This document shows positions 5 through 26,386 of a stretch of 64,000 bases of DNA, in pieces. A program made the translations under genes and the position numbers. Origin of the DNA: a virus (Duplodnaviria; Caudoviricetes); the IMG/VR virus record IMGVR_UViG_3300036987_000310, positions 128,001-192,000 of that record; one strand, written 5' to 3'. The notes under the pieces were generated by a model. That model was given only the letters and a program-made list of their open reading frames with translations, did no database searches and was not told the DNA's origin. Positions within the stretch are counted from its first letter, which is position 1. The number at the start of each line of letters is the position of its first letter.

Positions 5-508
5 TTGAAGCGCATAATCGACAAAGAAAGAGCGGTGGCCTGGCGCGCGTATGAAACAGCAGATGACAAAATAACCGGCAAGAATTGCAAAATTCATGGG
101 TTTGTTAACATCGAGAACTGTCACGTTGGAAAGCTGCCAGGAGGTGGACCGAGGGTGCTGTGCAGATTGTGTTCGAGAGCTCGTGACAAAGCACGCAAGG
201 CAAAGAAGTTCACGGACCGTGTTGCGCATATGCCCAAGGCCAAACCGCCGCGCGTTGCCACCGCGCGCAATGAGCTTGTTATTCAAGACGGCCGCGTCGT
301 TGGGCTTCAGTGCCGTGCGCACGGCCTCGTATCCGGAGACGAGTGTTTAATCACCGTGTGGCCGAATGGAAACTCTCGTGCTGTATGTAGGGTGTGCGCA
401 CGAGAGGCAGACAAGCGTCGAAAAAATCGAGACCGGCAACGACGCGGTTTGCCTGTCTTCGTAGCGGAGGGAGGCCGAATCGAACGGCCATCCTTTTGGA
501 CGCCCTAG
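5..508 (+). CDS. Protein with two tandem C-x2-H-G...C-x2-C zinc-finger-like repeats, Arg/Lys-rich
   Basis: CKIHG...CRLC and CRAHG...CRVC, each followed by a basic helix. Confidence 0.6.
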   Translation: MKRIIDKERAVAWRAYETADDKITGKNCKIHGFVNIENCHVGKLPGGGPRVLCRLCSRARDKARKAKKFTDRVAHMPKAKPPRVATARNELVIQDGRVVGLQCRAHGLVSGDECLITVWPNGNSRAVCRVCAREADKRRKNRDRQRRGLPVFVAEGGRIERPSFWTP

Positions 509-568
509 TGTTCCAAACTAGTTGCCCACCTTGAGCAGCACCCTCCAGTTTTTGTCACCCGTTTCAGT

Positions 569-2588: not shown

Positions 2589-2662
2589 TGCTGACGGCGA
2601 GATTCGAACTCGCACTAAACGCGGTTTGAGCACGTCGCCTCTGCCAGTTGGGCTACGTCAGC
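2589..2662 (-). tRNA. tRNA-Leu(CAA), short variable loop
   Basis: GCTGACG/CGTCAGC acceptor, loop CTCAAAC, TTCGAAT T-loop, 5-nt variable region. Confidence 0.9.
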
Positions 2663-3131: not shown

Positions 3132-3503
3132 TCAGCTGTCCATGACGTCTGCGACTCTGCATGTGTCAACATCATGATCTCTTTGTTTTTTGCATTCCAC
3201 GCACCAAACACTGAATTCAAACTTCCCATAGATGTCTCTCCATGGGTTGGAGCGTTTGGTGCGTGGAACTATGGCACTGTCGGGACATGCGGCATTCGTG
3301 AACGGTTTTGGGAAGTACGCTCTGACCTCCATCAAGTTTTTTCTCTTAACAACTGTGACAAGGTCAGCTAACAGGTCCCACTTTTCCACTTCTCTCAGAG
3401 TCTCAGCTATTGGGGATTTGATCCATTCCCATTCACTGCTAAAAATGTCGTCTTCGACAAAGTCAAAGTTGGCGGCAAGACGAGTCCCCCACAGTTTCTT
3501 CAT
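3132..3503 (-). CDS. Hypothetical protein with CxxC...H...C knuckle and tag (DVMDS)
   Basis: CVECKKQRDHDVDTCRVADVMDS*; ATG shares the A of the tRNA CCA. Confidence 0.7.
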   Translation of the reverse strand: MKKLWGTRLAANFDFVEDDIFSSEWEWIKSPIAETLREVEKWDLLADLVTVVKRKNLMEVRAYFPKPFTNAACPDSAIVPRTKRSNPWRDIYGKFEFSVWCVECKKQRDHDVDTCRVADVMDS

Positions 3504-3579
3504 GGTGGCCCGCCCGGGATTCGAACCCGGAACACACGGATTTTAAATCCGCTACGTCTGCCAATTGCGCCAGCGGGCC
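3503..3579 (-). tRNA. tRNA-Leu(TAA), short variable loop, encoded CCA
   Basis: GGCCCGC/GCGGGCC acceptor, loop TTTAAAA, 5-nt variable region GTGTT. Confidence 0.9.
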
Positions 3580-7191: not shown

Positions 7192-7469
7192 GCAGTTTGT
7201 TTACATCGACAGTAAACAAGTTGTACGGGGCCGGAGAATCGAACTCCGCTGCAACTCCTTGTAAGAGAGTGGTCATCGCCAGACGACTCGCCCCGCATGT
7301 GCGTCTCGAACTCGAGACGCTTCTTTTGGAATTCGTTCCAGTCTCCGGTCGCCATGGCGCGGCGAAACTCGATGTTCAAGGCTGCAATGACGGCTTTGCC
7401 CTCTTCGCAACACCAAACCCCGCTTCGACATTTGCACGCCTCCATAAATGCCCCCCTATCACACAACAT
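7188..7469 (-). CDS. Hypothetical protein (low confidence); ATG shares the A of tRNA-Gln CCA
   Basis: 93-aa ORF; the 3' part runs through tRNA-Val, so the true coding extent is doubtful. Confidence 0.35.
   Translation of the reverse strand: MLCDRGAFMEACKCRSGVWCCEEGKAVIAALNIEFRRAMATGDWNEFQKKRLEFETHMRGESSGDDHSLTRSCSGVRFSGPVQLVYCRCKQTA
7224..7296 (-). tRNA. tRNA-Val(TAC)
   Basis: GCGGGGC/GCCCCGT acceptor, loop CTTACAA, A73. Confidence 0.85.
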
Positions 7470-8717: not shown

Positions 8718-8790
8718 TTTTCAACTAGAGGTAAAAAAACTTTTCGTGGACGCTGTGAAAGTAATATCGCTTCAGCTTTTCCGATAGCGG

Positions 8791-10663: not shown

Positions 10664-10963
10664 TCAAAGTTGGTGAATCATTAAGGCCATGACCTCCATC
10701 GTATCGCGCCCATCTTCTGGACTTAATTCAAACTCCAAATCGCACTCCCACTTGTCCCAATGGAGAACCCCAGCCAAATCAAGCTCCCCGTTGCATGCAA
10801 GATCATACAATTTTTTGTTTTCATACAAAACCTTTGCCAGATCCAAGCCCCACCCTTCTTTTCGGAATCTTTTTTCTCTTTTTCCGTTAGAACCAGTCCA
10901 TGTCACCAAAGCTTCTGTTGGTCCGAAAAGAAGAACCTGGTTTACACGTATTCGAGCGCTCAA
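10664..10963 (-). CDS. Hypothetical protein with tag-like end (MIHQL)
   Basis: 99-aa ORF; ATGA overlap. Confidence 0.6.
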   Translation of the reverse strand: MSARIRVNQVLLFGPTEALVTWTGSNGKREKRFRKEGWGLDLAKVLYENKKLYDLACNGELDLAGVLHWDKWECDLEFELSPEDGRDTMEVMALMIHQL

Positions 10964-11595
10964 GAGTTTTGAACCTTTTTGACTGATTCATACCGCTCCC
11001 GCGCCGCCTTCTCTGCCTCCATTTCTTTTTGGTGCGATCTGCGAGTGTGATACTTTTTGTCTGAAAGGGCACCGATCGACTGCATGCATAAAAACACGAC
11101 AGTCCACAAAGCGAAGTCGCCCCCAATTGAAGCAGACCACTGCCGCTTGTTTTGGGAATGGTATCCGCAAACAAGGTTTTCTGGAAATCCCTCGAAATAC
11201 ACGGAGCGCAGTTCGTCTCCTGTATAGTCCGGCTCCGGCGGAGGAATTGTCTTGAACAGAGGTCCGAAGTCGGCTTTGATCGGCTCTTCGCTAAGAACAG
11301 TCAGCTTCCAACCAAAGAAGTTGTTCCGCACTGTGAACGAAATGCTGAAATCCTGCCTGGTGATTTGCACCACCGGAAGCGTTATAGATTTTGACGTATG
11401 AGTCGAAATCACGCGCGCTATTTGCTCGTCTTTTCGTTCGTAAAAGTTCATGCCGCTCTCGACAAGAGGCGTCAACTCGTCACGAATGAATTCGATTTGG
11501 GTGCCGAAGGCTCCCTTCCACAGCATCTCGTCGCCACAGATTTGTTCATTGACCCAATCTTGCAAAGGTGTTCCATTCAAAATTTTCTTTTGCAT
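10960..11595 (-). CDS. Hypothetical protein with tag-like end (KVQNS)
   Basis: Start moved to ATG 11595 because the track ORF runs through tRNA-Gly. Confidence 0.65.
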   Translation of the reverse strand: MQKKILNGTPLQDWVNEQICGDEMLWKGAFGTQIEFIRDELTPLVESGMNFYERKDEQIARVISTHTSKSITLPVVQITRQDFSISFTVRNNFFGWKLTVLSEEPIKADFGPLFKTIPPPEPDYTGDELRSVYFEGFPENLVCGYHSQNKRQWSASIGGDFALWTVVFLCMQSIGALSDKKYHTRRSHQKEMEAEKAARERYESVKKVQNS

Positions 11596-11641
11596 GATGG
11601 TCCATACTTTCACGGGCGAGTTATTTACAATAAGGTACTTG

Positions 11642-11722
11642 AGCGGGTGACGGGAATTGAACCCGCCGTGGCTTTCGCCCCCAGCATGGCAAGCTGGTGT
11701 CCCTCCATGAGACATCACCCGC
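11642..11722 (-). tRNA. tRNA-Gly(GCC) with long variable arm
   Basis: GCGGGTG/CACCCGC acceptor, U73, loop TTGCCAT, extra arm GGC-GAAA-GCC. Confidence 0.85.
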
Positions 11723-11726
11723 AATT

Positions 11727-12032
11727 CTATCGTCGGTTCACGCTGTTGCCAGCCCAGACGTTCCCTTGAACATTCCCGCATTTCACGCTATTGCCTCCTT
11801 CAACATCTCCATGAACTTCTCCACATTCGATAGAGCAGTCTGATTCAACTGAAGCCAGCGGGCCTTCCCACAGAATTTTGACATCGCCTTGCAAACCAGT
11901 TTGGACTGTGACACCATCCACTTGCACGACCCCGTTTTTGATCGTGACGTTATTGCCCTGGACAACTGTTGTTTTGCCATTGACAGTAATTCTGGTAGAT
12001 TGTGAAGGCGGCGTGCGGAAAGGGTTTCTCAT
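11727..12032 (-). CDS. Small beta-rich Gly/Val/Asn protein
   Basis: ITVNGKT..VQGNNVTIKNG...GDVEGGNSV low-complexity beta repeats. Confidence 0.65.
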   Translation of the reverse strand: MRNPFRTPPSQSTRITVNGKTTVVQGNNVTIKNGVVQVDGVTVQTGLQGDVKILWEGPLASVESDCSIECGEVHGDVEGGNSVKCGNVQGNVWAGNSVNRR

Positions 12033-12093
12033 ATCTTTAGGTACTCGAACGAGGGGTAGATTTTCGTTTTAGAGCGCATTTCAAATAATACAG

Positions 12094-12129
12094 TGGACCC
12101 CAGGCTTCGAACCCATGAGCTACGACCCC
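12094..12129 (-). pseudogene. tRNA remnant: 5' end joined directly to T-arm/3' end
   Basis: GGGGTCGTAGCTCA followed by TGGGTTCGAAGCCTGGGGTCCA; no anticodon arm. Confidence 0.45.
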
Positions 12130-12151
12130 GAGTTTTTAATTGTTTTGACTG

Positions 12152-12442
12152 TTGACGATGGACCACCAAAAATGCGACAGCACATGCAACTTCCATGAAA
12201 CAATCGTAAACAGGATGAAGGCCATGGAAGACACGGCAAAGATTTCATTGGACTTGAAAGAGGCAGTAAAAAACCTGTCAGACAATGTGGCGGCGTTGCA
12301 CCAAGCTGTGGTGAAAATGGCGGCAGAAAGAAACAACTCCATGCCGATCAGCGTGAGGGTGTTTATTGCCGTGCCATCGTTGCTAATCACCGTGGCAACG
12401 CTAGTGTGGCTGCACGAGCACGCTGGCGCGCTTCTAAATTAG
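12152..12442 (+). CDS. Coiled-coil protein with C-terminal transmembrane helix (holin/XhlA-like architecture)
   Basis: Heptad helix then VRVFIAVPSLLITVATLVWL. Confidence 0.55.
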   Translation: MTMDHQKCDSTCNFHETIVNRMKAMEDTAKISLDLKEAVKNLSDNVAALHQAVVKMAAERNNSMPISVRVFIAVPSLLITVATLVWLHEHAGALLN

Positions 12443-12516
12443 CGTCCTCGGCAGGATTTGAACCTGCAACCTTGTCCTTAGGAGGGACCTGCACGATCCG
12501 ATTGTGCTACGAGGAC
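12443..12516 (-). tRNA. tRNA-Arg(CCT)
   Basis: GTCCTCG/CGAGGAC acceptor, loop CTCCTAA. Confidence 0.88.
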
Positions 12517-12532
12517 GTTCTGTTGCTAAACT

Positions 12533-12808
12533 GTGGACCCTGTAATTTTTTGCATGGGAAAGCCAACGCATGAACTCGTCGTGAAGGATGTCGAAACCGG
12601 AGACTATGGAAAAATTGGCGTCGGATGGATGGACGACAAAGATGGATATGTGTCCATTAAGCTAAACCCATGCGTTGTCGTGTCGTATGAATCGTTGAGA
12701 GACAAAGTTCTCACGCTTTTTCCGATTAAAACCGACAAAGAATGGGCATCGTTTCACGCCAAAAAGAACAGGCAAAAAGCAAAAACCGAGTCAGAGTCAG
12801 AGTCATGA
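12533..12808 (+). CDS. Hypothetical protein
   Basis: 91-aa ORF, GKIGVGW..KDGYVSIKLNP. Confidence 0.6.
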   Translation: MDPVIFCMGKPTHELVVKDVETGDYGKIGVGWMDDKDGYVSIKLNPCVVVSYESLRDKVLTLFPIKTDKEWASFHAKKNRQKAKTESESES

Positions 12809-13063
12809 AGCCATGACTTGCTCTGGAGCAGACTCCTCGCAAGTCGGCATGTCGCCTTTCTCCGTGCGCCTAGACAGAACAACCCTGTCCCCCTCAGTCC
12901 AGATTTTCAACCCGCAGTCTTTGCAGTTGTGGGTCCAGTCGTGGTCGCCACGCACGGGCCACCATCTGTGAACAGGAAGTTTTTTGTCCTCGTTGCGCAC
13001 ATACTCCAACAATCGGATGTGAGATGGCGGATAAACAAAGTTTGGATCCTTTTGATCAAACAT
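12803..13063 (-). CDS. HxW...CxxC small protein with tag (QVMAS)
   Basis: VHRW...HDWTHNCKDCG...PTCEESAPEQVMAS. Confidence 0.65.
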   Translation of the reverse strand: MFDQKDPNFVYPPSHIRLLEYVRNEDKKLPVHRWWPVRGDHDWTHNCKDCGLKIWTEGDRVVLSRRTEKGDMPTCEESAPEQVMAS

Positions 13064-13077
13064 GCAATAAAATACAA

Positions 13078-13153
13078 TGGGGCGACCGACCGGTTACGAT
13101 CCGGCACTTGAAGGGCCACAACCTTCCGTGCAGTCCACTACACCACGGCCGCC
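13078..13153 (-). tRNA. tRNA-His(GTG) with G-1, C73, encoded CCA
   Basis: Loop TTGTGGC; atypical T-loop ATCGTAA. Confidence 0.85.
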
Positions 13154-13156
13154 ACG

Positions 13157-13276
13157 TTTCATTATATGCTTTTTTACTGCTTTATCTGATACCCCAAGCG
13201 CCTTCCCGACAGAAACATATCCGCGTTCGGATACCATTCGTTTCAGTTCTTCCAGTGAAGGCCATTCTGCTTTTGT
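13157..13276 (-). pseudogene. Start-less remnant of an HTH domain typical of the C-terminus of tRNA-linked HNH endonucleases
   Basis: Frame reads TKAEWPSLEELKRMVSERGYVSVGKALGVSDKAVKKHIMK with no start codon. Confidence 0.5.
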
Positions 13277-13291
13277 ATGTAGGTTCGATAA

Positions 13292-13369
13292 TGGTCGGGA
13301 TGGCCGGATTTGAACCGGCGTCCTCTTGACCCCCAGTCAAGCGCTCTTGCCAGGCTGAGCCACATCCCG
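13292..13369 (-). tRNA. tRNA-Pro(GGG), encoded CCA
   Basis: CGGGATG/CATCCCG acceptor, loop CTGGGGG. Confidence 0.92.
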
Positions 13370-13417
13370 CAATGCCGGTTTTGTCAGGATCCGGCAACCT
13401 GTCGCTGCAACGCAGAG

Positions 13418-14584
<1,167 letters not shown>

Positions 14585-14660
14585 TGCACTTGTGGGTTGC
14601 CAGCCCTCTTTCTCTTCTCTTCTCCTTAACCCCGTCGGACTATCCGACTCCAGGGGCTTG

Positions 14661-15083
14661 TTATGAATCCATGACTGCAGCCATCATTTTGTGACCGTCT
14701 TTTTCTAGCCACGGAAGATAGCTGTAAGCTTCCGGCGAGTCGTTTCCAAACCAGACCCAAACGTCGTCTTCAAGTCTTCCAAGCCAAAAAACAATGTCAT
14801 GCCATGGCTTGAATGATGGTTCTGCATGGTTTCGAAGCCACACGAGCAATTTGCCTGTTATTTTTGCTGGAATAGCAAGATAACAGGATTGGCTGCCCCA
14901 TTCGACGTCAACGTGGACGATCAAGTGGTCCGATGTTTGGGACCAAAAGTTCTTTCGCATACATAAGCGCACGAAGCTCCCAACAGCCAACGTTCTCCCA
15001 ACCCCGACGATTTCGCTATGGTGCGGATACTCGCCATGATAGTTCCATGAGTACTCGGGTTCGTGCGAGTCTGCGCTTTTCAA
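14661..15083 (-). CDS. Hypothetical protein with tag (AVMDS)
   Basis: Ends MMAAVMDS; start uncertain. Confidence 0.55.
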
Positions 15084-15086
15084 AGT

Positions 15087-15269
15087 TCATGACTCCATCA
15101 CGTCTGTCGCAATGTTAAACGCGCAGCTGTCATGCGTATGGCCGATTGAAACAAGGCGCCTGCACGCATGACACCATGTCATATTCCATTCTTTTGCTGG
15201 GACTGTCACAATGGATACCATTTCAAAAAGTGGCATCTTTTCAGTCATTCCACTTTTACGCATCGTCAC
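15087..15269 (-). CDS. Small CxxC...H...C protein with tag (DVMES)
   Basis: CHACRRLVSIGHTHDSCAFNIATDVMES. Confidence 0.65.
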   Translation of the reverse strand: MTMRKSGMTEKMPLFEMVSIVTVPAKEWNMTWCHACRRLVSIGHTHDSCAFNIATDVMES

Positions 15270-15442
15270 CCCTCAGAAACTGACTCCGGCTTAGTCACGG
15301 CAGCGGTTAACAACGCCAAAAGACTTTTTCCATCCTTGTCTGTGAGATCTGTTTCTATGTCTAGACGATTGCCTTTAGGCGTGTACACGACAACGCGGAC
15401 AGAAAATTTGCCAGGCCATCTTTTATTGATTGGCTGCTTCAT
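15266..15442 (-). CDS. Small hypothetical protein
   Basis: Start moved to ATG 15442 downstream of tRNA-Pro. Confidence 0.5.
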   Translation of the reverse strand: MKQPINKRWPGKFSVRVVVYTPKGNRLDIETDLTDKDGKSLLALLTAAVTKPESVSEG

Positions 15443-15472
15443 GCAACTCTCAACTGTCTGTTTAAAACCGGG

Positions 15473-15545
15473 TCGGGGTAGCCGGATTTGAACCGGCGAC
15501 GTCGTGCACCCAAAGCACGCGCTCTTCCAACTGAGCCATACCCCG
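15473..15545 (-). tRNA. tRNA-Pro(TGG)
   Basis: CGGGGTA/TACCCCG acceptor, loop TTTGGGT. Confidence 0.92.
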
Positions 15546-15546
15546 T

Positions 15547-15885
15547 TTAAGCTTGCCCTATCTCTTTGTTTCCAAAGATCCGGTCCCACCCGGATCTGTA
15601 AGCTTCGGTTGTCACTTTTGACGGACCGGAACAAGAACACTCACTTGAATAGTCCGACTCTCCATATAAAAACTCAACTTTGAACCTGTCGCCTTCGACA
15701 TGGGTGAGTTGAACAAGTTCCCCTCCCCCATTTATCGGGCACCCGTCTTTGACGACTCTCATGACGCCACCAACGACTTTATGATCTTTGGTGTGCCTGA
15801 TGAACGGCCGCACGCCATGGGACATCTCAGGACCAGCAATGAGCTCGTCTGAGCAATCGCACTTGTGACTCTTTTCGTCGCTCAT
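15547..15885 (-). CDS. Hypothetical protein
   Basis: 112-aa ORF ending GPSKVTTEAYRSGWDRIFG. Confidence 0.65.
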   Translation of the reverse strand: MSDEKSHKCDCSDELIAGPEMSHGVRPFIRHTKDHKVVGGVMRVVKDGCPINGGGELVQLTHVEGDRFKVEFLYGESDYSSECSCSGPSKVTTEAYRSGWDRIFGNKEIGQA

Positions 15886-15888
15886 GTG

Positions 15889-16299
15889 TTACCTGTCAAT
15901 TCTGATGAATCTGACGAGCTTTCCGTCAGCGTCGTCGTAGCTTGCTGCAATGAATCCCCACCCAGGCTTGTTGGACTCATCCGACTGTGTGCCCACGAGT
16001 CCGTTCAAAATCCCGAGAAGTCCAACCATCGTGTTTCCATCCCCACCTTTCACAACTTGAACAGTCGGGTGCTCAGCCATTTGATCGTTACATCGAACGC
16101 GAGTTTCAATCAAACGTTCCATCGCTTCTTTGTCGACAGACACTAGCTCGTTCAGGTATGCAATGACTTTGTCGACACCGTCTTCTGCGACATGTTCCAT
16201 TCGTCTATTCCTTAGCTTTTGGAGAAGATCGTCGCGATTGTTTCTGTCCATTCTTCCGCAGACCATTACAATGTCAAAACTACATTGTCCACCCAACAA
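15889..16299 (-). CDS. Hypothetical phage protein (start uncertain)
   Basis: RVRCNDQMAEHPTVQV...VGLLGILNGLVG. Confidence 0.65.
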   Translation of the reverse strand: MLGGQCSFDIVMVCGRMDRNNRDDLLQKLRNRRMEHVAEDGVDKVIAYLNELVSVDKEAMERLIETRVRCNDQMAEHPTVQVVKGGDGNTMVGLLGILNGLVGTQSDESNKPGWGFIAASYDDADGKLVRFIRIDR

Positions 16300-16639
16300 A
16301 TTTCCAGACAGGCTTTTTTGAAGCCGTCGAGATTTTCATCATGTCTGCCGTCCCAACCCCTCCCGGAAACGCAAGGACAATGTCCGGCTTTCCTTCTTTC
16401 AGCATTTGCCTATTACGTCTTTTTCCGGCTCCAAGACCGTAAAGATCCCAGTTTGCGGGAAACGGAACATGCTTTACCCCGTGTCTGACGGCCCACTGCA
16501 TCGCCATGGTGTCTGCCCCATTGGCTGCCCCGTGTACTACTGCGGAAACCCCTAAACTCTCGTGCAGATAGTTCAAAACAAGCTCTACAGCGACTTCGTC
16601 GCTCCAGTCTCGGCCTCCACACACTAGGACGCGAATCAT
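16280..16639 (-). CDS. SLOG-family protein (YspA/DUF2493-like)
   Basis: VLVCGGRDW...VVHGAANGAD...PANWDLYGLGAGKRRNRQML...VLAFPGGVGT. Confidence 0.85.
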   Translation of the reverse strand: MIRVLVCGGRDWSDEVAVELVLNYLHESLGVSAVVHGAANGADTMAMQWAVRHGVKHVPFPANWDLYGLGAGKRRNRQMLKEGKPDIVLAFPGGVGTADMMKISTASKKPVWKFVGWTM

Positions 16640-16642
16640 TTG

Positions 16643-16715
16643 AGCCGACAGCGAGAGTCGAACTCGCCTGGTCCGCTTTACGAGGGCGGTGCTCTCCCAC
16701 GAGTGCTATGTCGGC
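16643..16715 (-). tRNA. tRNA-Thr(CGT)
   Basis: GCCGACA/TGTCGGC acceptor, loop CTCGTAA. Confidence 0.88.
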
Positions 16716-16716
16716 T

Positions 16717-16792
16717 TGGAGCCGCCTGCGGGAGTCGAACCCGCTGTCTCCAGAGTACAAAACTGGCGCCCCGCCACTGGGGCCTAGGCGGC
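16717..16792 (-). tRNA. tRNA-Thr(TGT), encoded CCA
   Basis: GCCGCCT/AGGCGGC acceptor, loop TTTGTAC. Confidence 0.88.
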
Positions 16793-16794
16793 GA

Positions 16795-17169
16795 TTATCG
16801 CTTGAGCGCACACACTGCCAAGTTGACGCTTGTCGCCATGATGACTGTTATGTTGCGGGATTCAAGCTCAAAATTCACTATGTCAAGTTCGGGAACTCTG
16901 TCCGGACTGCATACCCAGGCGGATTCCCCACCTCTATTCGAAAGAGCTTCCATGCAGTCCGCAAACTTTGTGGCTCCCCATGAGTCGACGAATCCAACTT
17001 TAGAGAGATCCAACAAAAGAATCGGGCCCCACAAGCTTCCAGACAGATTCTGCAACTCGTCGTCTGCCCCCAATTTCAAATGGAACGAAACGTCTCGCGT
17101 CCAGTCCCCTCGAATCGTGGCAATTGTCACGCCATCTTCTTCTCTGACTTCAACTGTCGGTTTTGGCAT
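16795..17169 (-). CDS. STAS-domain protein (anti-sigma-factor antagonist-like)
   Basis: VTIATIRGDW...ILLLDLSKVGFVDSWG; phospho-acceptor Ser position retained. Confidence 0.8.
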   Translation of the reverse strand: MPKPTVEVREEDGVTIATIRGDWTRDVSFHLKLGADDELQNLSGSLWGPILLLDLSKVGFVDSWGATKFADCMEALSNRGGESAWVCSPDRVPELDIVNFELESRNITVIMATSVNLAVCALKR

Positions 17170-17170
17170 G

Positions 17171-17572
17171 TCAAGACTCCCATACTTCTTGAACCACGAT
17201 CTCCCGAATTGCGTCCAGAAGCATCTGACCATCCAAGTTCTTTTCTGAAGCTTCCAAAAACACCTGTCCGTCTAACAATCCGGCGCGCCAAATTGAAGAA
17301 TGCTTGACGCAGTACATGTGCCCCTTGAACGGGCGCCCTCTGTCCATTTCAAATCGGAATTCAAACTGACTGCCGTGCGAGTGTCCACAATTCCTGCACA
17401 TGCCTCCTTCCACACGCTCGACATATCTTGTGGAAAAGTTGTCGACTAGCTTTTCCAGGTATGGATCGCCTGAAGACATTAATCGAATTTCTGACACTAC
17501 TTTGTTCAGGTATTTTAGCGCTTCCGGCTTAAATACGAACCACTCCTCTACCGGGACTCCAAGATTTTTCAT
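17171..17572 (-). CDS. Hypothetical CxxC/H protein with tag (EVWES)
   Basis: CRNCGHSHG...YCVKH; ends IVVQEVWES. Confidence 0.65.
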   Translation of the reverse strand: MKNLGVPVEEWFVFKPEALKYLNKVVSEIRLMSSGDPYLEKLVDNFSTRYVERVEGGMCRNCGHSHGSQFEFRFEMDRGRPFKGHMYCVKHSSIWRAGLLDGQVFLEASEKNLDGQMLLDAIREIVVQEVWES

Positions 17573-17661
17573 CGGCTCCTCCTGATCGGGTGGAGCCTCC
17601 TGGCGGTGATCTTGACCTCATATTTGCACTTTACAAGTTCACAAGCCTTGAGAACACCATG

Positions 17662-17913
17662 TCAAACGGGAAGGCGACTGGCTTGCGACTCGAACGCACA
17701 AAGCATGTCTTTGATAAGACCACTTGCAAGCGACACGTCTTTCATGAGCTCTTGCAAACTTTTAACAGCCATTTGCATTTCCAGGTCCTCCATGGTTTTT
17801 CCTTGACCCACTAAAGACTGGACGTTGGCCAGAATTGCATCAGCTCTGGCCACATTCTTGAGCATCTTTTTTGTCAGCTTCTTCTTTTTTTGCTTTGCAG
17901 GGAGCTTGGCCAT
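17662..17913 (-). CDS. Small basic hypothetical protein
   Basis: 83-aa ORF, Lys-rich N-terminus. Confidence 0.55.
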   Translation of the reverse strand: MAKLPAKQKKKKLTKKMLKNVARADAILANVQSLVGQGKTMEDLEMQMAVKSLQELMKDVSLASGLIKDMLCAFESQASRLPV

Positions 17914-17999
17914 ATTTTCATGGTACCGGTTTTGTCGACCGATTTTCGCCCATGGTTTTAATCAGAAGTTTTAATACTCACTTGAACCCAGCCAAGTAT

Positions 18000-18164
18000 A
18001 TGATGAACTTAAGCAAAATAGCAGCCAGAATAGCGCAACAAACCGCGCTAAGCAATGAATATGAAAGCCGAATTTGGAAACGTTGCCTTGCATGTGCTTC
18101 AAGAATATTATGGAGACAAAGCGGGGTGGTGAGGCTTGGCAAATTAAGCCATAGTTTAACTTGA
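18000..18164 (+). CDS. Small protein with N-terminal IAxRIA motif (possibly degraded)
   Basis: MMNLSKIAARIAQQ; start moved to ATG 18000. Confidence 0.4.
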   Translation: MMNLSKIAARIAQQTALSNEYESRIWKRCLACASRILWRQSGVVRLGKLSHSLT

Positions 18165-18177
18165 TGTAATTTGCCAT

Positions 18178-18555
18178 ATGATGCCTCGGAAGAAGTCCAG
18201 AGGGATTGTGGTTGACGGAGTGGCGTTCAGGTGGGCAATCAACCACTCTGACATCGTCGTTCAAGCAGAATCGGGTGGTTCTATGCTTTTGGTAAACGGA
18301 GTCTGCCACAGAAGCTACGATTATGATCGCGACAAATACGTTCAAGAGCCCGTCACCCCGCGCTCAATTGCATCAGTGATCCGGCATTCCATGAAGTCTG
18401 GATGGGTATTCAATGCAAGGGGTCCAGTATTCAAAATCAATGTTGGGGATCTGTTGAAATATCGGTGCCCAACATGCAAAGATCTAGTTATCCGAAATGA
18501 TCACCCAGACTATGAATGTGGATTGAACGCCATTCGAACCATCATGGACACGTGA
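18178..18555 (+). CDS. Hypothetical protein with Zn knuckle and tag (TIMDT)
   Basis: SRGIVVDGVAFRWAI...CPTC...H...CGLNAIRTIMDT. Confidence 0.7.
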   Translation: MMPRKKSRGIVVDGVAFRWAINHSDIVVQAESGGSMLLVNGVCHRSYDYDRDKYVQEPVTPRSIASVIRHSMKSGWVFNARGPVFKINVGDLLKYRCPTCKDLVIRNDHPDYECGLNAIRTIMDT

Positions 18556-19034
18556 TGGTTCGAATAAAGTCAGAGATGTTGAACCCCGGGGACCTCCCCA
18601 TATATGATTTCCCGAATTGGAAGCACGAAATATTTTATTTGGAGGAGAAGGACGAGCACGTCCATCTCATGAAATTTGCTGGAAACGGAATTCGAGTGAC
18701 GATTCCGGAAATTGAACTGTGCTGCACTGCCAACAGTCAAGACGACGCAAGCGAGAAGGTTAGGCTGAAGGCGCTAAAGCTAATGGCTGAAGTGTGTGTT
18801 TTCATTGGTGCAGAAAACACATTCGTTGTCATGCCAGTCAGAAACCACATGGTTCTCCTACAAGAGGAGAAGTTCATGGCTGTCATGACTGTTGGTATGC
18901 TGTTTACTCGCGATCCAACGCCTGAAGACGTTGACGAGTTCCTCCCATGGATTCCGGAACGAATCCATGACTCCCGAGATTTTCTTGAAAACACTGAAAA
19001 AACTCTGGAAGTTATGGAAGTCATGACAGCATGA
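18555..19034 (+). CDS. Hypothetical protein with tag (EVMEVMTA)
   Basis: Start moved to ATG 18555 (TGATG overlap). Confidence 0.65.
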   Translation: MVRIKSEMLNPGDLPIYDFPNWKHEIFYLEEKDEHVHLMKFAGNGIRVTIPEIELCCTANSQDDASEKVRLKALKLMAEVCVFIGAENTFVVMPVRNHMVLLQEEKFMAVMTVGMLFTRDPTPEDVDEFLPWIPERIHDSRDFLENTEKTLEVMEVMTA

Positions 19035-19046
19035 AATATGACCTAG

Positions 19047-19118
19047 TGGGTCGTCCGCGAGTCGAACGCGGGGCAAGATCCTTATCAGAGATCTCAGGGC
19101 ACCGGCCCGTCACGACCC
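19047..19118 (-). tRNA. tRNA-Ile(GAT), compact D-arm
   Basis: GGGTCGT/ACGACCC acceptor, loop CTGATAA. Confidence 0.8.
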
Positions 19119-19163
19119 GATGTTGAACAAACTGAAGTACTAGAAGACACTGGATAAAAACAG

Positions 19164-19248
19164 TGCGCAGGAGAGGAATTGAACCTCCACGTTCACTAAG
19201 GAACAACAGGCCCTCAACCTGTCGCGGCTGCCATTACGCCACCTGCGC
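19164..19248 (-). tRNA. tRNA-Leu(GAG)
   Basis: Loop TTGAGGG, long variable arm, A73. Confidence 0.92.
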
Positions 19249-19265
19249 AGTTTGTAACGTGACAA

Positions 19266-19835
19266 ATGCAAAGAATTTTTCTTCTTGACGTGGACGGGAT
19301 TCTCACAGACTTCCATGCAGCTATTGCAGACGTTGCCACTCAAGCCGGGTTTCCGATAAGTTCTCAGCAAATGGGAGAATGGGAGATGTCGGCTTCGTTG
19401 AGAAAGCTGAACGTCCCCGAAGAGGTTATTGAACGCTGCATGTCTGCGATGTCGTCTGTCGGCTTCAACTGCAAGCTTGAACCAACAAAAGAAGCTGTTG
19501 AAAATTTGCCGAAGTTGACGAGAGTCGCCACTGTTCTATTCGTCACGTCGCCGAACGTGGGATGTAAAACCTGGGTTGAAGAGAGAATCTGGTGGATGAA
19601 GAAACACTTTGGGGTTTCTCAAGACGACATCATTTTTGTTCAAGACAAAAGCAACGTCCCGGGAGACGCTTTTGCAGACGACAATCCGCACAATGTTCTT
19701 CAGTGGTCAGCAAAAAATTTCGGGGCCGCGATTCTGTGGGACGCCCCGTACAACAGGTCCGTTGAAGTCAAACGGCGAGCCAAATCATGGAAAGACCTCA
19801 TCGATACAGCGAAATTTTTGAGCGAGATGCTGTGA
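19266..19835 (+). CDS. 5'(3')-deoxyribonucleotidase (NT5C-type HAD)
   Basis: LLDVDGILTDF motif I, VTSP, DKS..PGDAFADD, WDAPYN. Confidence 0.85.
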   Translation: MQRIFLLDVDGILTDFHAAIADVATQAGFPISSQQMGEWEMSASLRKLNVPEEVIERCMSAMSSVGFNCKLEPTKEAVENLPKLTRVATVLFVTSPNVGCKTWVEERIWWMKKHFGVSQDDIIFVQDKSNVPGDAFADDNPHNVLQWSAKNFGAAILWDAPYNRSVEVKRRAKSWKDLIDTAKFLSEML

Positions 19836-20066
19836 TCAAACGTCCATGATGTCGAACACTGAGTATTCTTCTTCCGACATGAAGCCAGCACCGGAATCGC
19901 CGTAGACTCGGAACCCACTTTCTAATTCAACGTATTTTATTTTACGTCCTTGCCGCACAATCCCAAAGCTTCCGTGGGCCGACGTGTGTTGATGTTTTTT
20001 CCATACGTAGACGCGAGACCCCGCCGAGAACCTGTCGAGAAGAAATTTTCCGGGGTCAAAGTCCAC
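19836..20066 (-). CDS. Small protein with tag (DIMDV)
   Basis: GTG start; N-terminus DFDPGKFLLDRF also present as a remnant near 20420-20480. Confidence 0.6.
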   Translation of the reverse strand: MDFDPGKFLLDRFSAGSRVYVWKKHQHTSAHGSFGIVRQGRKIKYVELESGFRVYGDSGAGFMSEEEYSVFDIMDV

Positions 20067-20067
20067 G

Positions 20068-20400
20068 TCATTCTTCCATGACGTCTCTAACGCCAGCCAG
20101 CATGCGCAAGTCGTTCATGGACCCTCTCGAGTTCAAAATGGTAGCGATGCTTTCTCTTCCCTCAGAGTTGCGGAAAAGGGGCCTCAGCTCGCCGCGATAC
20201 GACCCGAATTGCATCAAGCGGATCATCCAGCGCCGTCCACAACAAGCGCACACAAACCCAAACTGCATTTTTTCTCCGACAACCTCAGACCTGATGTCGG
20301 GCGATGAACAGTTTTCCATATGACGGACAATGTTGATCAACATGTCGTCGACATCATTGTCCCATGTTTTTTCATTCACAATGCGTTCCGTGGTTTTCAT
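20068..20400 (-). CDS. Hypothetical CxxC protein with tag (DVMEE)
   Basis: Start moved to ATG 20400; FVCACCG; ends VRDVMEE. Confidence 0.65.
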   Translation of the reverse strand: MKTTERIVNEKTWDNDVDDMLINIVRHMENCSSPDIRSEVVGEKMQFGFVCACCGRRWMIRLMQFGSYRGELRPLFRNSEGRESIATILNSRGSMNDLRMLAGVRDVMEE

Positions 20401-20415
20401 TCGTTGTGGACCTTT
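20371..20415. repeat. 45-bp direct repeat, copy 1 (41/45 identical to 21395-21439)
   Basis: Aligned by eye; four mismatches. Confidence 0.85.
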
Positions 20416-20467
20416 AAGCAACACACGCGCTCCCACCGGAAACCTATCAGGAAGGAACTTTTCCGGT

Positions 20468-21415
20468 TCAAAGTCCGCAGACAAGCTTTTCACCAAGATC
20501 TTTCAGAAACTCGGCGCCATATTTCCCGCCTGGCTCCAGACACGGTTCCATGAAATCTGGCAATTTGTCAAAGCTTCGAGCGGAAGCAATTCCCCAAGCA
20601 ATGGCGGCGACGCTGTCGGTGTCTCCGCCCCATTCAACCAATTGCTTCATCATTTCGACAAGAGATTTTCCAGAAGTGACCAGGTCAAACACGGCGTGAA
20701 CAGTCTTCATTCCAACTCCTGGCCCCATGACCGGACCCTGCCACCGCGGAAGCATGGTGGCAATTTTTTCTAGCTTTCCAGGAAGCATCATGGAGAGAAA
20801 TGTCACTATGGCTCCCGGCTGCATTGGGCCTGACGAGTACATGGAAAAGTGGGACATCAGTGCGACCAACTGCGACGACAAAACGCCGTCTGGCGTGTCG
20901 TGCGTTATGCGCGCTTGCCTTTCCGCAACTCGAACAACTCTTTCCGGAGATTTTAGAGCCCCGATTGGAACAGAACGCATCGCCGCCCCGTTTTTGTCTG
21001 ATTCGGGTCGAATTTTTTCAAGAAGCTCTTTTCCAGAGTCCACAGAGTTTAAAAGAGACTGGAAGCCTCGGGCGTAGCCGTCTCTGCGATCTCGTTTGTA
21101 GCATCGCACAAACGATTCGGCAAAAGCTTCCTTCGAGAGGTCTCCAGCAATCAGCGTTTCCGCGACTGCAATGGACATTTGCGTGTCGTCTGTGTACTGT
21201 CCGGGACGCAGGTTGTGCACTGGATGTTTCAAGTATTTTTCGAGCTTCAAAGCCTCGTCGCGAACAAACTGATCCCGGGGGAGTTTGATATATTCGGTCG
21301 CCATCGCGTAAGCGTCGGCGCAAGCAATAGACAAAAGCATGTTTGGATTCGGGTTCCGCATGCTGAAAATTACAGCGTCATTCTTCAATGACGTTTCATT
21401 CACAGTGCGTTCCAT
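20468..21415 (-). CDS. ADP-ribosylglycohydrolase (ARH/DraG family)
   Basis: ADAYAM, YTDDTQM, NGAAMRSVPIG, GGDTDSVAAIAWGI. Confidence 0.92.
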   Translation of the reverse strand: MERTVNETSLKNDAVIFSMRNPNPNMLLSIACADAYAMATEYIKLPRDQFVRDEALKLEKYLKHPVHNLRPGQYTDDTQMSIAVAETLIAGDLSKEAFAESFVRCYKRDRRDGYARGFQSLLNSVDSGKELLEKIRPESDKNGAAMRSVPIGALKSPERVVRVAERQARITHDTPDGVLSSQLVALMSHFSMYSSGPMQPGAIVTFLSMMLPGKLEKIATMLPRWQGPVMGPGVGMKTVHAVFDLVTSGKSLVEMMKQLVEWGGDTDSVAAIAWGIASARSFDKLPDFMEPCLEPGGKYGAEFLKDLGEKLVCGL

Positions 21416-21439
21416 GGTTTCTATTCGTTGTGGACCTTT
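21395..21439. repeat. 45-bp direct repeat, copy 2
   Basis: Covers the KVHNE* tag of the upstream gene and the ARH start. Confidence 0.85.
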
Positions 21440-21642
21440 CGGATCAAAAGCCAGGACAAATACTCCGACTTGTTGATAGGTTCAAACTTGCTAAGCAACA
21501 CGCCGGGGCCGCCGACGCCATCGACAGCGTTTATGAGCCACGCCGAGTGCTGCTCGCACGTGGCGTAGCAACGCCCCCACTTGTCTTTCCAAAAGTAGGT
21601 CGGCGTCGCAGCGCAACTGCTGTGTAAACACTCGATAGTCAC
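21421..21642 (-). CDS. Small Cys/His protein with tag (KVHNE)
   Basis: GTG start overlapping upstream stop; CLHSSC...CEQH; ends LIRKVHNE. Confidence 0.6.
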   Translation of the reverse strand: MTIECLHSSCAATPTYFWKDKWGRCYATCEQHSAWLINAVDGVGGPGVLLSKFEPINKSEYLSWLLIRKVHNE

Positions 21643-21863
21643 GACTCTAGAACTTCTTCCACGAGAAGCTTTCTTAAACAGTCGAGACAAGTGACCTTTG
21701 ACCTGGCAAAAGTGTATAGCATTTCAGGCTGCGTTCTAGACGCCGGAATCATGTGCACGTCGGGCGGGAGGGTTCTTATGGCCCATGGGTGCCCGCATGT
21801 TTGCGTGCAATATATGCGCACTTCAGGCTGTTGAGACCAGTCGCTCCAATGGATCAGGATCAT
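21639..21863 (-). CDS. Small Cys/His protein with tag (EVLES)
   Basis: CTQTCGHPW...VTCLDCLRKLLVEEVLES. Confidence 0.65.
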   Translation of the reverse strand: MILIHWSDWSQQPEVRIYCTQTCGHPWAIRTLPPDVHMIPASRTQPEMLYTFARSKVTCLDCLRKLLVEEVLES

Positions 21864-21877
21864 AGCGCGCTCGTCAA

Positions 21878-22213
21878 TTAGTACATGTTGCTTCTGTTGA
21901 TTATTCCGAGAAATTCCAAATCTGTGTGGGAAAGCCTGTATGTGGTGTCCTTGACAAGGTGTTCGGTCATGAACCGGTACATTTTGGCTTTTTCTCGATA
22001 CTCTTTGGCTCGACTGATCAAGTTTGTAGATTGATCCCCGCTAAACTTGGGGGAATCGTCGCCGGCCATTTCGGAAATCTTGGCGCTAAGAGCGCGCTGT
22101 TCTTCGCCTTGTTTCCCAAATACGTCTGCTTTCCGTTCGCATTGCTCAACGCGCTTTTCAAGGATCTTGCGAATTTCTTCAGACGTGACGTCGTAATGCA
22201 GTCCTTCAATCAT
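21878..22213 (-). CDS. Hypothetical coiled-coil protein
   Basis: Start moved to ATG 22213 after GGAG. Confidence 0.6.
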   Translation of the reverse strand: MIEGLHYDVTSEEIRKILEKRVEQCERKADVFGKQGEEQRALSAKISEMAGDDSPKFSGDQSTNLISRAKEYREKAKMYRFMTEHLVKDTTYRLSHTDLEFLGIINRSNMY

Positions 22214-22312
22214 GTTCATCTCCTTGTTGAAACAATACACCCAGCTCCAGGGGATGGAGTCCCCAATGTTTCGCGAGCGGTTGATGGCCGCTTGCCTTAG
22301 GCGACCCTGAAA

Positions 22313-22386
22313 TGGCGGGCCAGGCAAGAATCGAACTTGCTACCAGCGGTTTTGGAGACCACCGAGCTACCTTAGCGTTCTGACCC
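22313..22386 (-). tRNA. tRNA-Trp(CCA), encoded CCA
   Basis: Loop CTCCAAA, G73. Confidence 0.88.
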
Positions 22387-22392
22387 ATGAAG

Positions 22393-22465
22393 TGGGAAGA
22401 GACGGAATTGAACCGTCGACACGCGAATTTTCAGTCCGCTGCTCTTCCAGCTGAGCTACCTTCCC
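22393..22465 (-). tRNA. tRNA-Phe(GAA)
   Basis: Loop CTGAAAA. Confidence 0.92.
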
Positions 22466-22469
22466 TTGA

Positions 22470-22543
22470 TGGCGGTCCTGACGGGAATCGAACCCGCCTC
22501 ACTGCATAGACAGTGCAGCAGCCTCCCAGATGCTTACAGGACC
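22470..22543 (-). tRNA. tRNA-Asp(GTC), encoded CCA
   Basis: Loop CTGTCTA, G73. Confidence 0.9.
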
Positions 22544-22547
22544 GTAG

Positions 22548-22620
22548 AGGCGACGGTGAGACTCGAACTCACATGGTAGCGGTTAACAGCCGCTTGCCTT
22601 ACCGAGTAGGCTACGTCGCC
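22548..22620 (-). tRNA. tRNA-Asn(GTT)
   Basis: Loop CTGTTAA; discriminator U rather than the usual G. Confidence 0.88.
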
Positions 22621-22668
22621 AATTAAACACTTCATATCCTACGAACCTCACAAGATTCGTAGGCGTAG

Positions 22669-22740
22669 CATCCCCAGTAGGATTCGAACCTACACATCTG
22701 GTTCCGTAGACCAGCGCCCTGTCCATTAGGCTATGGGGAT
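22669..22740 (-). tRNA. tRNA-Arg(ACG)
   Basis: ATCCCCA/TGGGGAT acceptor, loop CTACGGA. Confidence 0.9.
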
Positions 22741-22800
22741 ATTTTACGGCGTTTGAGTGATGGCTAAGTGTGCTTATACGCTTTGAAGAGTGAACGTTGT

Positions 22801-22876
22801 TGGCATCCCCACGGAGATTCGAACTCCGATTCCTAGGCTGAGAACCTAGTTGCCTGAACCATTAGCAGATGGGGAC
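22801..22876 (-). tRNA. tRNA-Glu(CTC), encoded CCA
   Basis: Loop TTCTCAG. Confidence 0.9.
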
Positions 22877-22941
22877 ATGCGACGCTTTTCGCGCCGATCT
22901 GCTCGGGCACCTCCGATTCTAAGTCGGACACCTTTGCTGGG

Positions 22942-23014
22942 CGCTCCCAGCGGGAATCGAACCCGCATTTCCAGATTGAAAATCTGGCCGCCTAACCGTT
23001 AGCTAGATGGGAGC
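22942..23014 (-). tRNA. tRNA-Glu(TTC)
   Basis: Loop TTTTCAA. Confidence 0.9.
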
Positions 23015-23019
23015 AGTTG

Positions 23020-23102
23020 AGCGGACGACCGGAATCGAACCGGCCTGTGCTTGCGCACGCCAGGGTGGAAACCTGGTGCCCCGCCGTTGAGGCTTCGCCC
23101 GC
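23020..23102 (-). tRNA. tRNA-Gly(TCC) with long variable arm
   Basis: GCGGGCG/CGTCCGC acceptor, U73, loop TTTCCAC, extra arm GTGC-GCAA-GCAC. Confidence 0.85.
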
Positions 23103-23129
23103 ATAAAGTTTTTTTTTAGAAGCATTGAC

Positions 23130-23624
23130 ATGAATTTGTTTCGAATAGCCAGAAGAGTTGCAGCGATTTCCGGTCCAAACCAGTGTAAAAATTGTAGAGG
23201 CACTGGGTTCGTAAACATGGGAGACTGCCCCGAGTGCGGAGGCACCGGAATGGGGCCCCAATCGAGGCCGACAAGTCAAACGCCCATTGACGACATTGCG
23301 AGCAAGGTCATGGAAGCGTTCAGGACTGGGCAGGTCTGGGAATTTGCCGGAGAATCGCATCGAGTGCTGGAACTTCCGGGCAGAGTTACAGTTATCACCC
23401 ATTCTGATTATCCGAACGATCCCAGCAAAGCCTGGGTGGAAATCGTCGTTGATCTGGACGAAGACGAGTACGAGAAAAGATTCCACGAAAAGCCAGATAC
23501 CGGCGGATACTTTGGCTGGACAGTTGACATACGCCACTTGGACTTGACAAACAAAGCCGCAGTTCGGGACTGGGTGACGGAGATGGACAACGAAGGAGTG
23601 TTTGAAGGGTACGATGTCAACTAG
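23130..23624 (+). CDS. Protein with N-terminal IAxRVA motif and DnaJ-type zinc finger
   Basis: MNLFRIARRVAA; CKNCRGTG and CPECGGTG. Confidence 0.7.
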   Translation: MNLFRIARRVAAISGPNQCKNCRGTGFVNMGDCPECGGTGMGPQSRPTSQTPIDDIASKVMEAFRTGQVWEFAGESHRVLELPGRVTVITHSDYPNDPSKAWVEIVVDLDEDEYEKRFHEKPDTGGYFGWTVDIRHLDLTNKAAVRDWVTEMDNEGVFEGYDVN

Positions 23625-26264: not shown

Positions 26265-26302
26265 CGTTTTGGACCCATCTATTCTTCGACGTCAAGAAAC
26301 AG

Positions 26303-26386
26303 TGGAGGCGTGTGGAGTCGAACCACCTAGACCAAAGTCCCTGCGTTTACAGCGCAAGCCGTTTCCCGGAACGTTCATCCGCCTCC
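26303..26386 (-). tRNA. tRNA-Tyr(GTA)
   Basis: GGAGGCG/CGCCTCC acceptor, loop CTGTAAA, variable arm GGAC-TTTG-GTCT. Confidence 0.85.

Follow-up and report, generated by a model that had tools for sequence, protein, structure and literature searches.

The stretch of DNA analysed here (the window, 64,000 nucleotides) corresponds to bases 128,001-192,000 of the complete genome of an uncultured Caudoviricetes phage, 376,674 bp long with terminal repeats (IMG/VR record IMGVR_UViG_3300036987_000310). It holds two tRNA-Gly genes, with the anticodons GCC and TCC, that both carry a long class II-type variable arm, a feature traditionally reserved for Leu, Ser, Tyr and selenocysteine (Sec) tRNAs. We conclude that such armed tRNA-Gly are real, widespread in phages and apparently undescribed, and that they are not a recoding system. 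Considering all the evidence, they are probably functional glycine tRNAs that act in elongation and belong to a kind peculiar to phages, with escape from host defence as their likeliest purpose.

ARAGORN called both genes on the minus strand, tRNA-Gly(GCC) at 11641-11722 and tRNA-Gly(TCC) at 23019-23102, the additional base relative to Table 1 being C74. The RNAfold centroid was a five-arm cloverleaf for both (z -3.4 and -2.6), and Rfam RF00005 matched Gly(TCC) at 37.9 bits but missed Gly(GCC). The variable region of Gly(GCC) is 14 nt long and consists of G44, a 3-bp hairpin with a GAAA loop and three unpaired bases before the T stem; in Gly(TCC), with 15 nt, C44 is followed by a hairpin of 4 bp with a GCAA loop and then by two unpaired bases. 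Both genes thus have the class II structure (a variable region of ≥10 nt with a 3-7-bp stem) and neither has the 4-5-nt variable loop of class I. The initial annotation of the window had described the extra stems GGC-GAAA-GCC and GTGC-GCAA-GCAC on a retained glycine acceptor. The hairpins are exactly as claimed, and G1-C72, C2-G71, G3-C70 and U73 are all present, together with G4-C69, C35 and C36. Overlooked there was a noncanonical core in both tRNAs, made up of A8, G48 and a D stem lengthened by a C14-G21 pair (5-6 bp in Gly(GCC), closed by that pair) in place of the bacterial U8-A14-A21 core. Canonical bacterial tRNA-Gly shares with the phage pair G1-C72, C2-G71, G4-C69, C35, C36, U73, G49.U65, the GCC/UCC anticodons and the 7/5 fold favoured here, but differs in its 4-5-nt variable loop, its core and base 38, which is A38 in the bacterial tRNA-Gly genes compared and U38 or C38 in the phage genes. 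Two overlapping open reading frames (ORFs) were rejected as a source of the additional bases. The in-frame ATG of ORF 10960-11781 is at 11595, downstream of Gly(GCC), and ORF 22992-23537 opposes a 164-aa ORF on the plus strand; both overlaps were treated as chance.

The bacterial glycine identity set has been defined as G1-C72, C2-G71, C35, C36 and U73 (PMC9976931), and both tRNAs carry it in full. In the crystal structure of Escherichia coli glycyl-tRNA synthetase (GlyRS), the enzyme binds the acceptor stem as well as the anticodon loop (PMC9908026). The synthetases that serve long-arm tRNAs have other needs: tyrosyl-tRNA synthetase (TyrRS) requires A73 and U35, leucyl-tRNA synthetase (LeuRS) requires A73, and seryl-tRNA synthetase (SerRS) depends on a long arm with G73. 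Neither phage tRNA has A73 or G73, both have C35 rather than U35, and the arm is shorter than that of tRNA-Ser. Its geometry is Tyr-like (median 14 nt and 3 bp in Tyr) and not Ser-like (18 nt, 4-7 bp, one unpaired base, G73). Judged from these features, use by SerRS is unlikely, the arm being too short and wrongly based, as is use by LeuRS (no A73) or TyrRS (no A73 or U35). Bacterial tRNA-Tyr(GUA) does share the 3-4-bp arm, the two or three unpaired bases before the T stem and the median length of ~14 nt. The phage pair differs from it in its Gly anticodon, acceptor and U73 and in a body without Tyr, Leu or Ser ancestry; the arm presumably serves as no synthetase handle.

Compared over their bodies, the two tRNAs share 72-80% identity with their nearest short-arm phage tRNA-Gly, as against 44-66% with the Ser, Leu and Tyr tRNAs encoded by this phage (48-66% for Leu). 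Because of this difference, we rejected the idea that either arose from one of these Ser, Leu or Tyr tRNAs through a change of anticodon. In the related viral locus L419, the short-arm Gly(TCC) and Gly(CCC) already show the C14-G21 D loop and G48, and the D arm of the window's Gly(TCC) is almost identical to that of the L419 Gly(CCC). The 5-nt loop of the L419 short-arm Gly tRNAs ends in AG, as does the variable region of Gly(TCC) after its hairpin. The simplest history suggested by these comparisons is that a short GNRA-capped hairpin was inserted into the variable loop of an ordinary glycine tRNA body.

Codon usage in the phage points the same way with respect to decoding. GGN codons occupy 28 of 28 conserved Gly columns in EF-Tu and 30 of 33 in IMPDH (58/61 in total) and never fall at Leu, and 34 Gly positions in collagen repeats draw on all four GGN codons. 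Since phage genes keep GGN at conserved Gly positions, reassignment of Gly codons is excluded at the level of sequence, while low-level mischarging is still compatible with the data. Gly accounts for 7.5% of phage codons, GGA (30%) and GGC (29%) being the commonest, and the complete genome encodes only these two tRNA-Gly, with no short-arm backup copy. CCA is not fully encoded in most tRNAs of the array to which they belong, including both tRNA-Gly. No match to a CCA-adding enzyme (PF01743) was found in the complete genome, with positive controls. The synthetase search, confined to the profiles PF02091, PF00587, PF03129 and PF00133, likewise gave no match in the complete genome, again with positive controls; neither a glycyl nor any further class IIa synthetase was found there, nor one of class Ia. 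On these searches, such a phage-encoded synthetase was rejected as a dedicated partner. We consider it likely that both genes encode glycine-charged tRNAs, an estimate that jointly covers four steps: the armed tRNAs would be released from the tRNA transcript of the phage, receive their CCA from the host CCA-adding enzyme, be charged with glycine by a host GlyRS that reads the acceptor stem, U73 and anticodon, and serve to decode GGY and GGR codons.

To follow the arm beyond this phage, we combined a pattern scan for long-arm viral tRNA-Gly with a subfamily scan; 119 loci were parsed, and the resulting counts are lower bounds drawn from the matches listed. True armed tRNA-Gly were present in at least 110 of these loci. 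Including the window's two, there were 95 distinct sequences, 89 with TCC and six with GCC anticodons. Taken singly, the hairpins of the window, each in a short G+C-rich stretch, do not reach significance (shuffle p 0.19 and 0.06). Across the 95 homologous arms, at least three Watson-Crick pairs form in 56, compared to 28 ± 4 in shuffles (maximum 43), and GNRA closes 29 of these 56 paired arms. Several unrelated arm sequences occur, with lengths of 10-18 nt. The A8/C14-G21-core subfamily to which the window's genes belong is small, with ~8 loci in viruses and 16 stretches of metagenome DNA, almost all of which belong to tRNA clusters of phage-like character. It includes an orthologue of Gly(GCC) in L419/L434 with 90% identity outside the loops and nearly the same arm. 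In the subfamily alignment, 97.8% of cells were paired and 14 pairs showed two-sided changes, well above slid controls, although kinship inflates these figures; C14-G21 was present in 13/13 members, though for most of them the search pattern itself demanded it. Since the first pattern had forced a Gly acceptor, an acceptor-blind search was also run. Of the 16 unique armed TCC tRNAs that it returned, 13 combined U73 with a Gly acceptor, two had a Leu-type A73 body, and one is probably not a tRNA.

Among cultured phages, armed tRNA-Gly is carried by, for example, Serratia phage BF and Yersinia phage fHe-Yen9-04; the Erwinia pEa_SNUABM phages have the same gene at 99-100% identity. In GenBank, the 85-nt BF_tRNA18 is annotated plainly as tRNA-Gly. 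A blastn search of cultured phages with the Gly(TCC) gene found short-arm Gly tRNAs only. Our literature search, which included the review PMC7609411 and covered few subscription journals, found no description of an armed tRNA-Gly in phages or bacteria. The survey of viral loci agrees with the earlier suggestion of a dedicated design, with compensatory pairing across at least 110 viral loci, while revealing that the arm is patchy among close relatives. As far as the viral and bacterial searches reach, the armed tRNA-Gly is a maintained, phage-restricted design that is not peculiar to the phage studied.

Arms of this kind would have been unremarkable if common in host tRNA-Gly. In a long-arm pattern scan of GTDB, which is a sample and not a census, none of the 118 parsed loci listed was a real armed tRNA; the listed matches were misregistered ordinary Gly tRNAs. 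A stricter pattern applied to 1,808 genomes from eight phyla, including 201 Planctomycetota and many incomplete metagenome-assembled genomes, found no armed tRNA-Gly; its seven matches were all misregistered or non-tRNA. As a positive control, a short-gap version of the pattern recovered ordinary Gly tRNAs in 10/10 control genomes. The arm was therefore not seen in the bacteria searched, which does not prove its absence from bacteria.

An A8-U65 pair is possible in both window genes, which recalls the (8/4) allo-tRNAs and the phage (8/4) tRNA-Ser and tRNA-His (PMC5389517). These share with the window pair a long arm, an extended D stem and a purine after the seventh acceptor pair, and U73 occurs in allo-tRNAs (PMC5389517). 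Unlike allo-tRNAs, the window genes can equally form the 7/5 fold, which is the RNAfold centroid of both, and they have a much shorter arm that is not Sec-like in length, as well as Gly identity. The 8/4 fold was initially attractive for these two genes and was weakened by the L419/L434 orthologue of Gly(GCC), in which C8 faces U65 and an 8/4 fold is impossible. U65 is found in 14 of the 15 A8 members among the 95 armed viral tRNA-Gly and also in 46 of the 66 U8 members. On balance we lean towards the 7/5 fold for both genes, as favoured by the folding model, with 8/4 also possible. In 15 of the 95, however, the 8/4 fold is forced by a 49.65 mismatch combined with a Watson-Crick 8:65 pair (loci including L037, L043, L048, L051, L053, L104, L413 and L414). 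Phage 8/4 tRNAs have been described only for Ser and His (PMC5389517), and these loci extend them to glycine.

Loss of U8 is not confined to the armed tRNA-Gly of this phage; six further tRNAs lack it. Among short-arm tRNAs, G8 or A8 occurs in Val at 7223, Met at 8789 and 8860, Thr at 16717 and Ile at 19046, and Thr(TGT) combines A8 with C14-G21 and is incapable of an 8/4 fold. Two tRNA-Ser are (8/4)-like, Ser(GGA) at window 464-546 on the minus strand and Ser(CGA) at G000:125418-125502, with G8-C65 and A8-U65 pairs, and share the C14-G21 D loop with the armed tRNA-Gly.

What the arm is for is the weakest step in our reading. By analogy with other phage tRNAs, we tentatively favour escape from a tRNA-targeting defence, a purpose that we rate slightly below an even chance. 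On this view, arm, remodelled core and altered base 38 would change the shape of the tRNA at places that GlyRS ignores. Nucleases or toxins of the host that are adapted to its own short-arm tRNA-Gly would miss the armed form, and phage translation would outlast depletion of the host tRNA. Phage tRNAs that resist defences are known: the SP15 tRNA-Tyr against Retron-Eco7 (PMC12673091), the T5 tRNA-Lys, tRNA-Thr and tRNA-Asn against PARIS (PMC12409363), and mycobacteriophage tRNAs against VapC (PMC10264068). As in those cases, the phage isoacceptor keeps its identity but differs from the host copy, and in SP15 the resistance of tRNA-Tyr to Retron-Eco7 depends on a longer variable loop (PMC12673091). 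Those examples involve a lengthened class II arm or point changes, whereas in the present case an arm has been added to a tRNA of class I, and a matching defence system is not known.

Several points weigh against defence escape. The known Gly-targeting toxins FaRel2 and AtaT/TacT read the acceptor stem, and the type I preference of FaRel2 is put down to the acceptor stem in its own paper. Both phage tRNA-Gly keep all four FaRel2 determinants and an unaltered acceptor stem, so that the arm does not necessarily protect against these toxins. We know of no tRNA-Gly-specific nuclease that reads the variable loop. The patchiness of the arm among close relatives fits an arms race but also drift, the probable host is suggested only by EF-Tu, and the B2 domain of GlyRS may contact the tRNA elbow (PMC9908026).

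The most serious competing explanation, though we think it less likely, is that the tRNAs are charged with glycine and the arm has no defence role, being either a tolerated insertion or a stabiliser of a tRNA that has lost its U8-A14 core. The arm is patchy between isoacceptors of one phage as well as among close relatives, its sequences are of several unrelated kinds, and phage tRNAs are generally loose, as judged from the six others here without U8 and from the 63 of 189 Leu tRNAs in the fetched viral loci that lack an arm. Yet GNRA hairpins are retained beyond chance and the TCC:GCC bias is 89:6, and a harmless insertion should occasionally turn up in bacteria, where none was found in those searched. 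Stabilisation of a damaged core is countered by the normal U8 core in 66 of the 95 armed tRNA-Gly and by the existence of remodelled cores without an arm.

It is improbable that the arm makes the tRNAs decoys, mimicking class II to soak up nucleases that cut variable arms, such as PtuAB, with decoding secondary. VapC52 cuts the variable loop of tRNA-Ser, and the arm here is Tyr-like; Retron-Eco7 cuts the variable loop of tRNA-Tyr, and an excess of tRNA-Tyr neutralises it (PMC12673091). A pure decoy would have no need of the Gly identity elements or of stems that are all kept by compensatory change, and the phage would be exposing its only Gly tRNAs.

We regard mischarging as quite improbable. 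The initial annotation had raised altered charging and an analogy with nematode nev-tRNAs; the arm would then recruit SerRS or LeuRS, as in allo-tRNAs (Ser) or nev-tRNAs (Leu), leaving Gly codons ambiguous, which might, for example, poison host translation. A long arm with G73 or U73 has been taken as Ser identity in allo-tRNAs (PMC5389517), and bacterial tRNA-Ser likewise has G1-C72 and C2-G71, while SerRS ignores the anticodon. The nev-tRNA-Gly(CCC) also combines a Gly anticodon with a long variable arm (PMC3333845, PMC4300185). However, nev-tRNAs carry A73 in all 115 cases (PMC3333845) and have a Leu-type arm, are leucylated in vitro, and are minor extra copies with a rare-codon bias (PMC3333845, PMC4300185). 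The phage pair has U73 and Gly identity on a Gly-derived body, with a 3-4-bp arm followed by two or three unpaired bases, and as the sole Gly tRNAs it serves the commonest Gly codons, so that both Gly decoders would be hit with no backup while GGN codons are conserved as Gly in phage genes. For nev-tRNAs themselves, no mistranslation was detectable in vivo (PMC4300185). Neither altered charging nor the nematode parallel is upheld for these genes. Two other viral tRNAs with a TCC anticodon, L305 and L324, do have a Leu-type body with A73 and a long arm, and are candidates for nev-like mischarging.

A private delivery pair, in which the arm fits the tRNAs to the phage's own EF-Tu, had also been proposed and is very improbable. 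The EF-Tu gene does sit between the two tRNA-Gly genes, and a relative with an 85% identical EF-Tu carries an armed Gly(TCC), but four relatives with EF-Tu proteins that are 89, 82, 80 and 82% identical have short-arm Gly tRNAs only. Conversely, Serratia phage BF and its kin and Yersinia phage fHe-Yen9-04 are armed yet not among the EF-Tu matches in the phage collection. EF-Tu reads the acceptor and T stems, and the T stem of Gly(GCC) is that of ordinary bacterial tRNA-Gly (e.g., L155 and L161). Because close EF-Tu relatives are unarmed and cultured armed phages lack an EF-Tu match, these comparisons indicate that the arm and the phage EF-Tu are independent traits. Removal of the additional bases as an intron or spacer is highly improbable: although the phage encodes RtcB, neither a bulge-helix-bulge nor a self-splicing structure accompanies the 10-nt hairpins of the variable loop, and arm lengths (10-18 nt) and geometry are those of genuine class II arms.

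The two tRNA-Gly genes belong to an array of ~40 tRNA genes, mostly inside the window, that also contains the EF-Tu gene (Table 1). Gly(TCC) heads the run Gly-Glu-Glu-Arg-Asn-Asp-Phe-Trp, and no sigma-70-type promoter was found near it. The switch I sequence of the phage EF-Tu, GGTVRDxxKTVTI, is Stieleria-like, and the verrucomicrobial, acidobacterial and Syntrophus proteins differ (five genomes compared). Since this switch I matches Stieleria, the host is probably a planctomycete, on the evidence of one gene and five genomes; the planctomycete-type switch I is common to related jumbo phages, and the IMPDH homologues compared indicated no host. The RtcB ligase gene lies near the tRNA array, 3 kb ahead of the window (G000:123407-124843). 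Within the window, tRNA-Trp(CCA) at 22316-22386 (minus strand) was detected by Rfam only and tRNA-Tyr(GTA) at 26302-26386 (minus strand) only with a lowered ARAGORN threshold. Outside it, G000:336141-336231 (plus strand) is a well-formed tRNA with a long arm, G73 and a UUA anticodon that reads the UAA stop; the phage uses the standard code. The scanned ORFs also included a Volactin-family match (E 3e-77).

Table 1. Positions in the window of the armed tRNA-Gly genes, their hairpins and associated features.
Feature	Position	Strand	Description
tRNA-Gly(GCC)	11642..11722	-	81 nt to U73; anticodon 11688-11690; A8, G48, G49.U65; CCA not encoded
Gly(GCC) variable-arm hairpin	11670..11679	-	GGC-GAAA-GCC; 3 bp + GAAA, Tyr-like geometry
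tRNA-Gly(TCC)	23020..23102	-	83 nt to U73; anticodon 23067-23069; A8, C14-G21, G48, G49.U65
Gly(TCC) variable-arm hairpin	23047..23058	-	GTGC-GCAA-GCAC; 4 bp + GCAA
EF-Tu gene	13418..14584	-	planctomycete-type switch I; context and host clue, not a required arm partner
tRNA-Leu(CAA)	2589..2662	-	4-nt variable loop (arm lost), A73
tRNA-Leu(TAA)	3503..3579	-	5-nt variable loop (arm lost), A73

The reverse change, likewise overlooked in the initial annotation, is seen in the two tRNA-Leu genes of the window, whose loss of the arm may be the same trick played backwards. Long variable regions were also called in other tRNAs of the viral loci L001-L436 (Asn 11/37, Thr 10/89, Lys 9/61, Pro 8/99 and Trp 5/27, with none among the Phe and Ala calls), but these calls are uncurated and may include introns or miscalls. 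A broader reading, which we consider possible but doubtful, is that phages have repeatedly reshaped tRNA-Gly to class II and tRNA-Leu to class I as a general counter-defence, a new shape at a position ignored by the synthetase hiding the tRNA from a widespread nuclease or toxin of the hosts, so far undescribed, that would recognise tRNA-Gly(UCC) with a short arm.

The rule that long arms occur only in Leu, Ser, Tyr and Sec tRNAs is broken in phages, and tRNA class is separable from identity in nature. A large family of armed tRNA-Gly sits in GenBank under plain tRNA-Gly labels, and Rfam misses one of the two described here. If GlyRS accepts the arm, the variable loop of tRNA-Gly would offer a natural insertion site for tRNA engineering. 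In cultured phages with armed tRNA-Gly and known hosts, the reason for which phages carry tRNAs can be tested directly and, should the broader counter-defence reading be true, the armed tRNAs would serve as bait for finding the defence that they evade.

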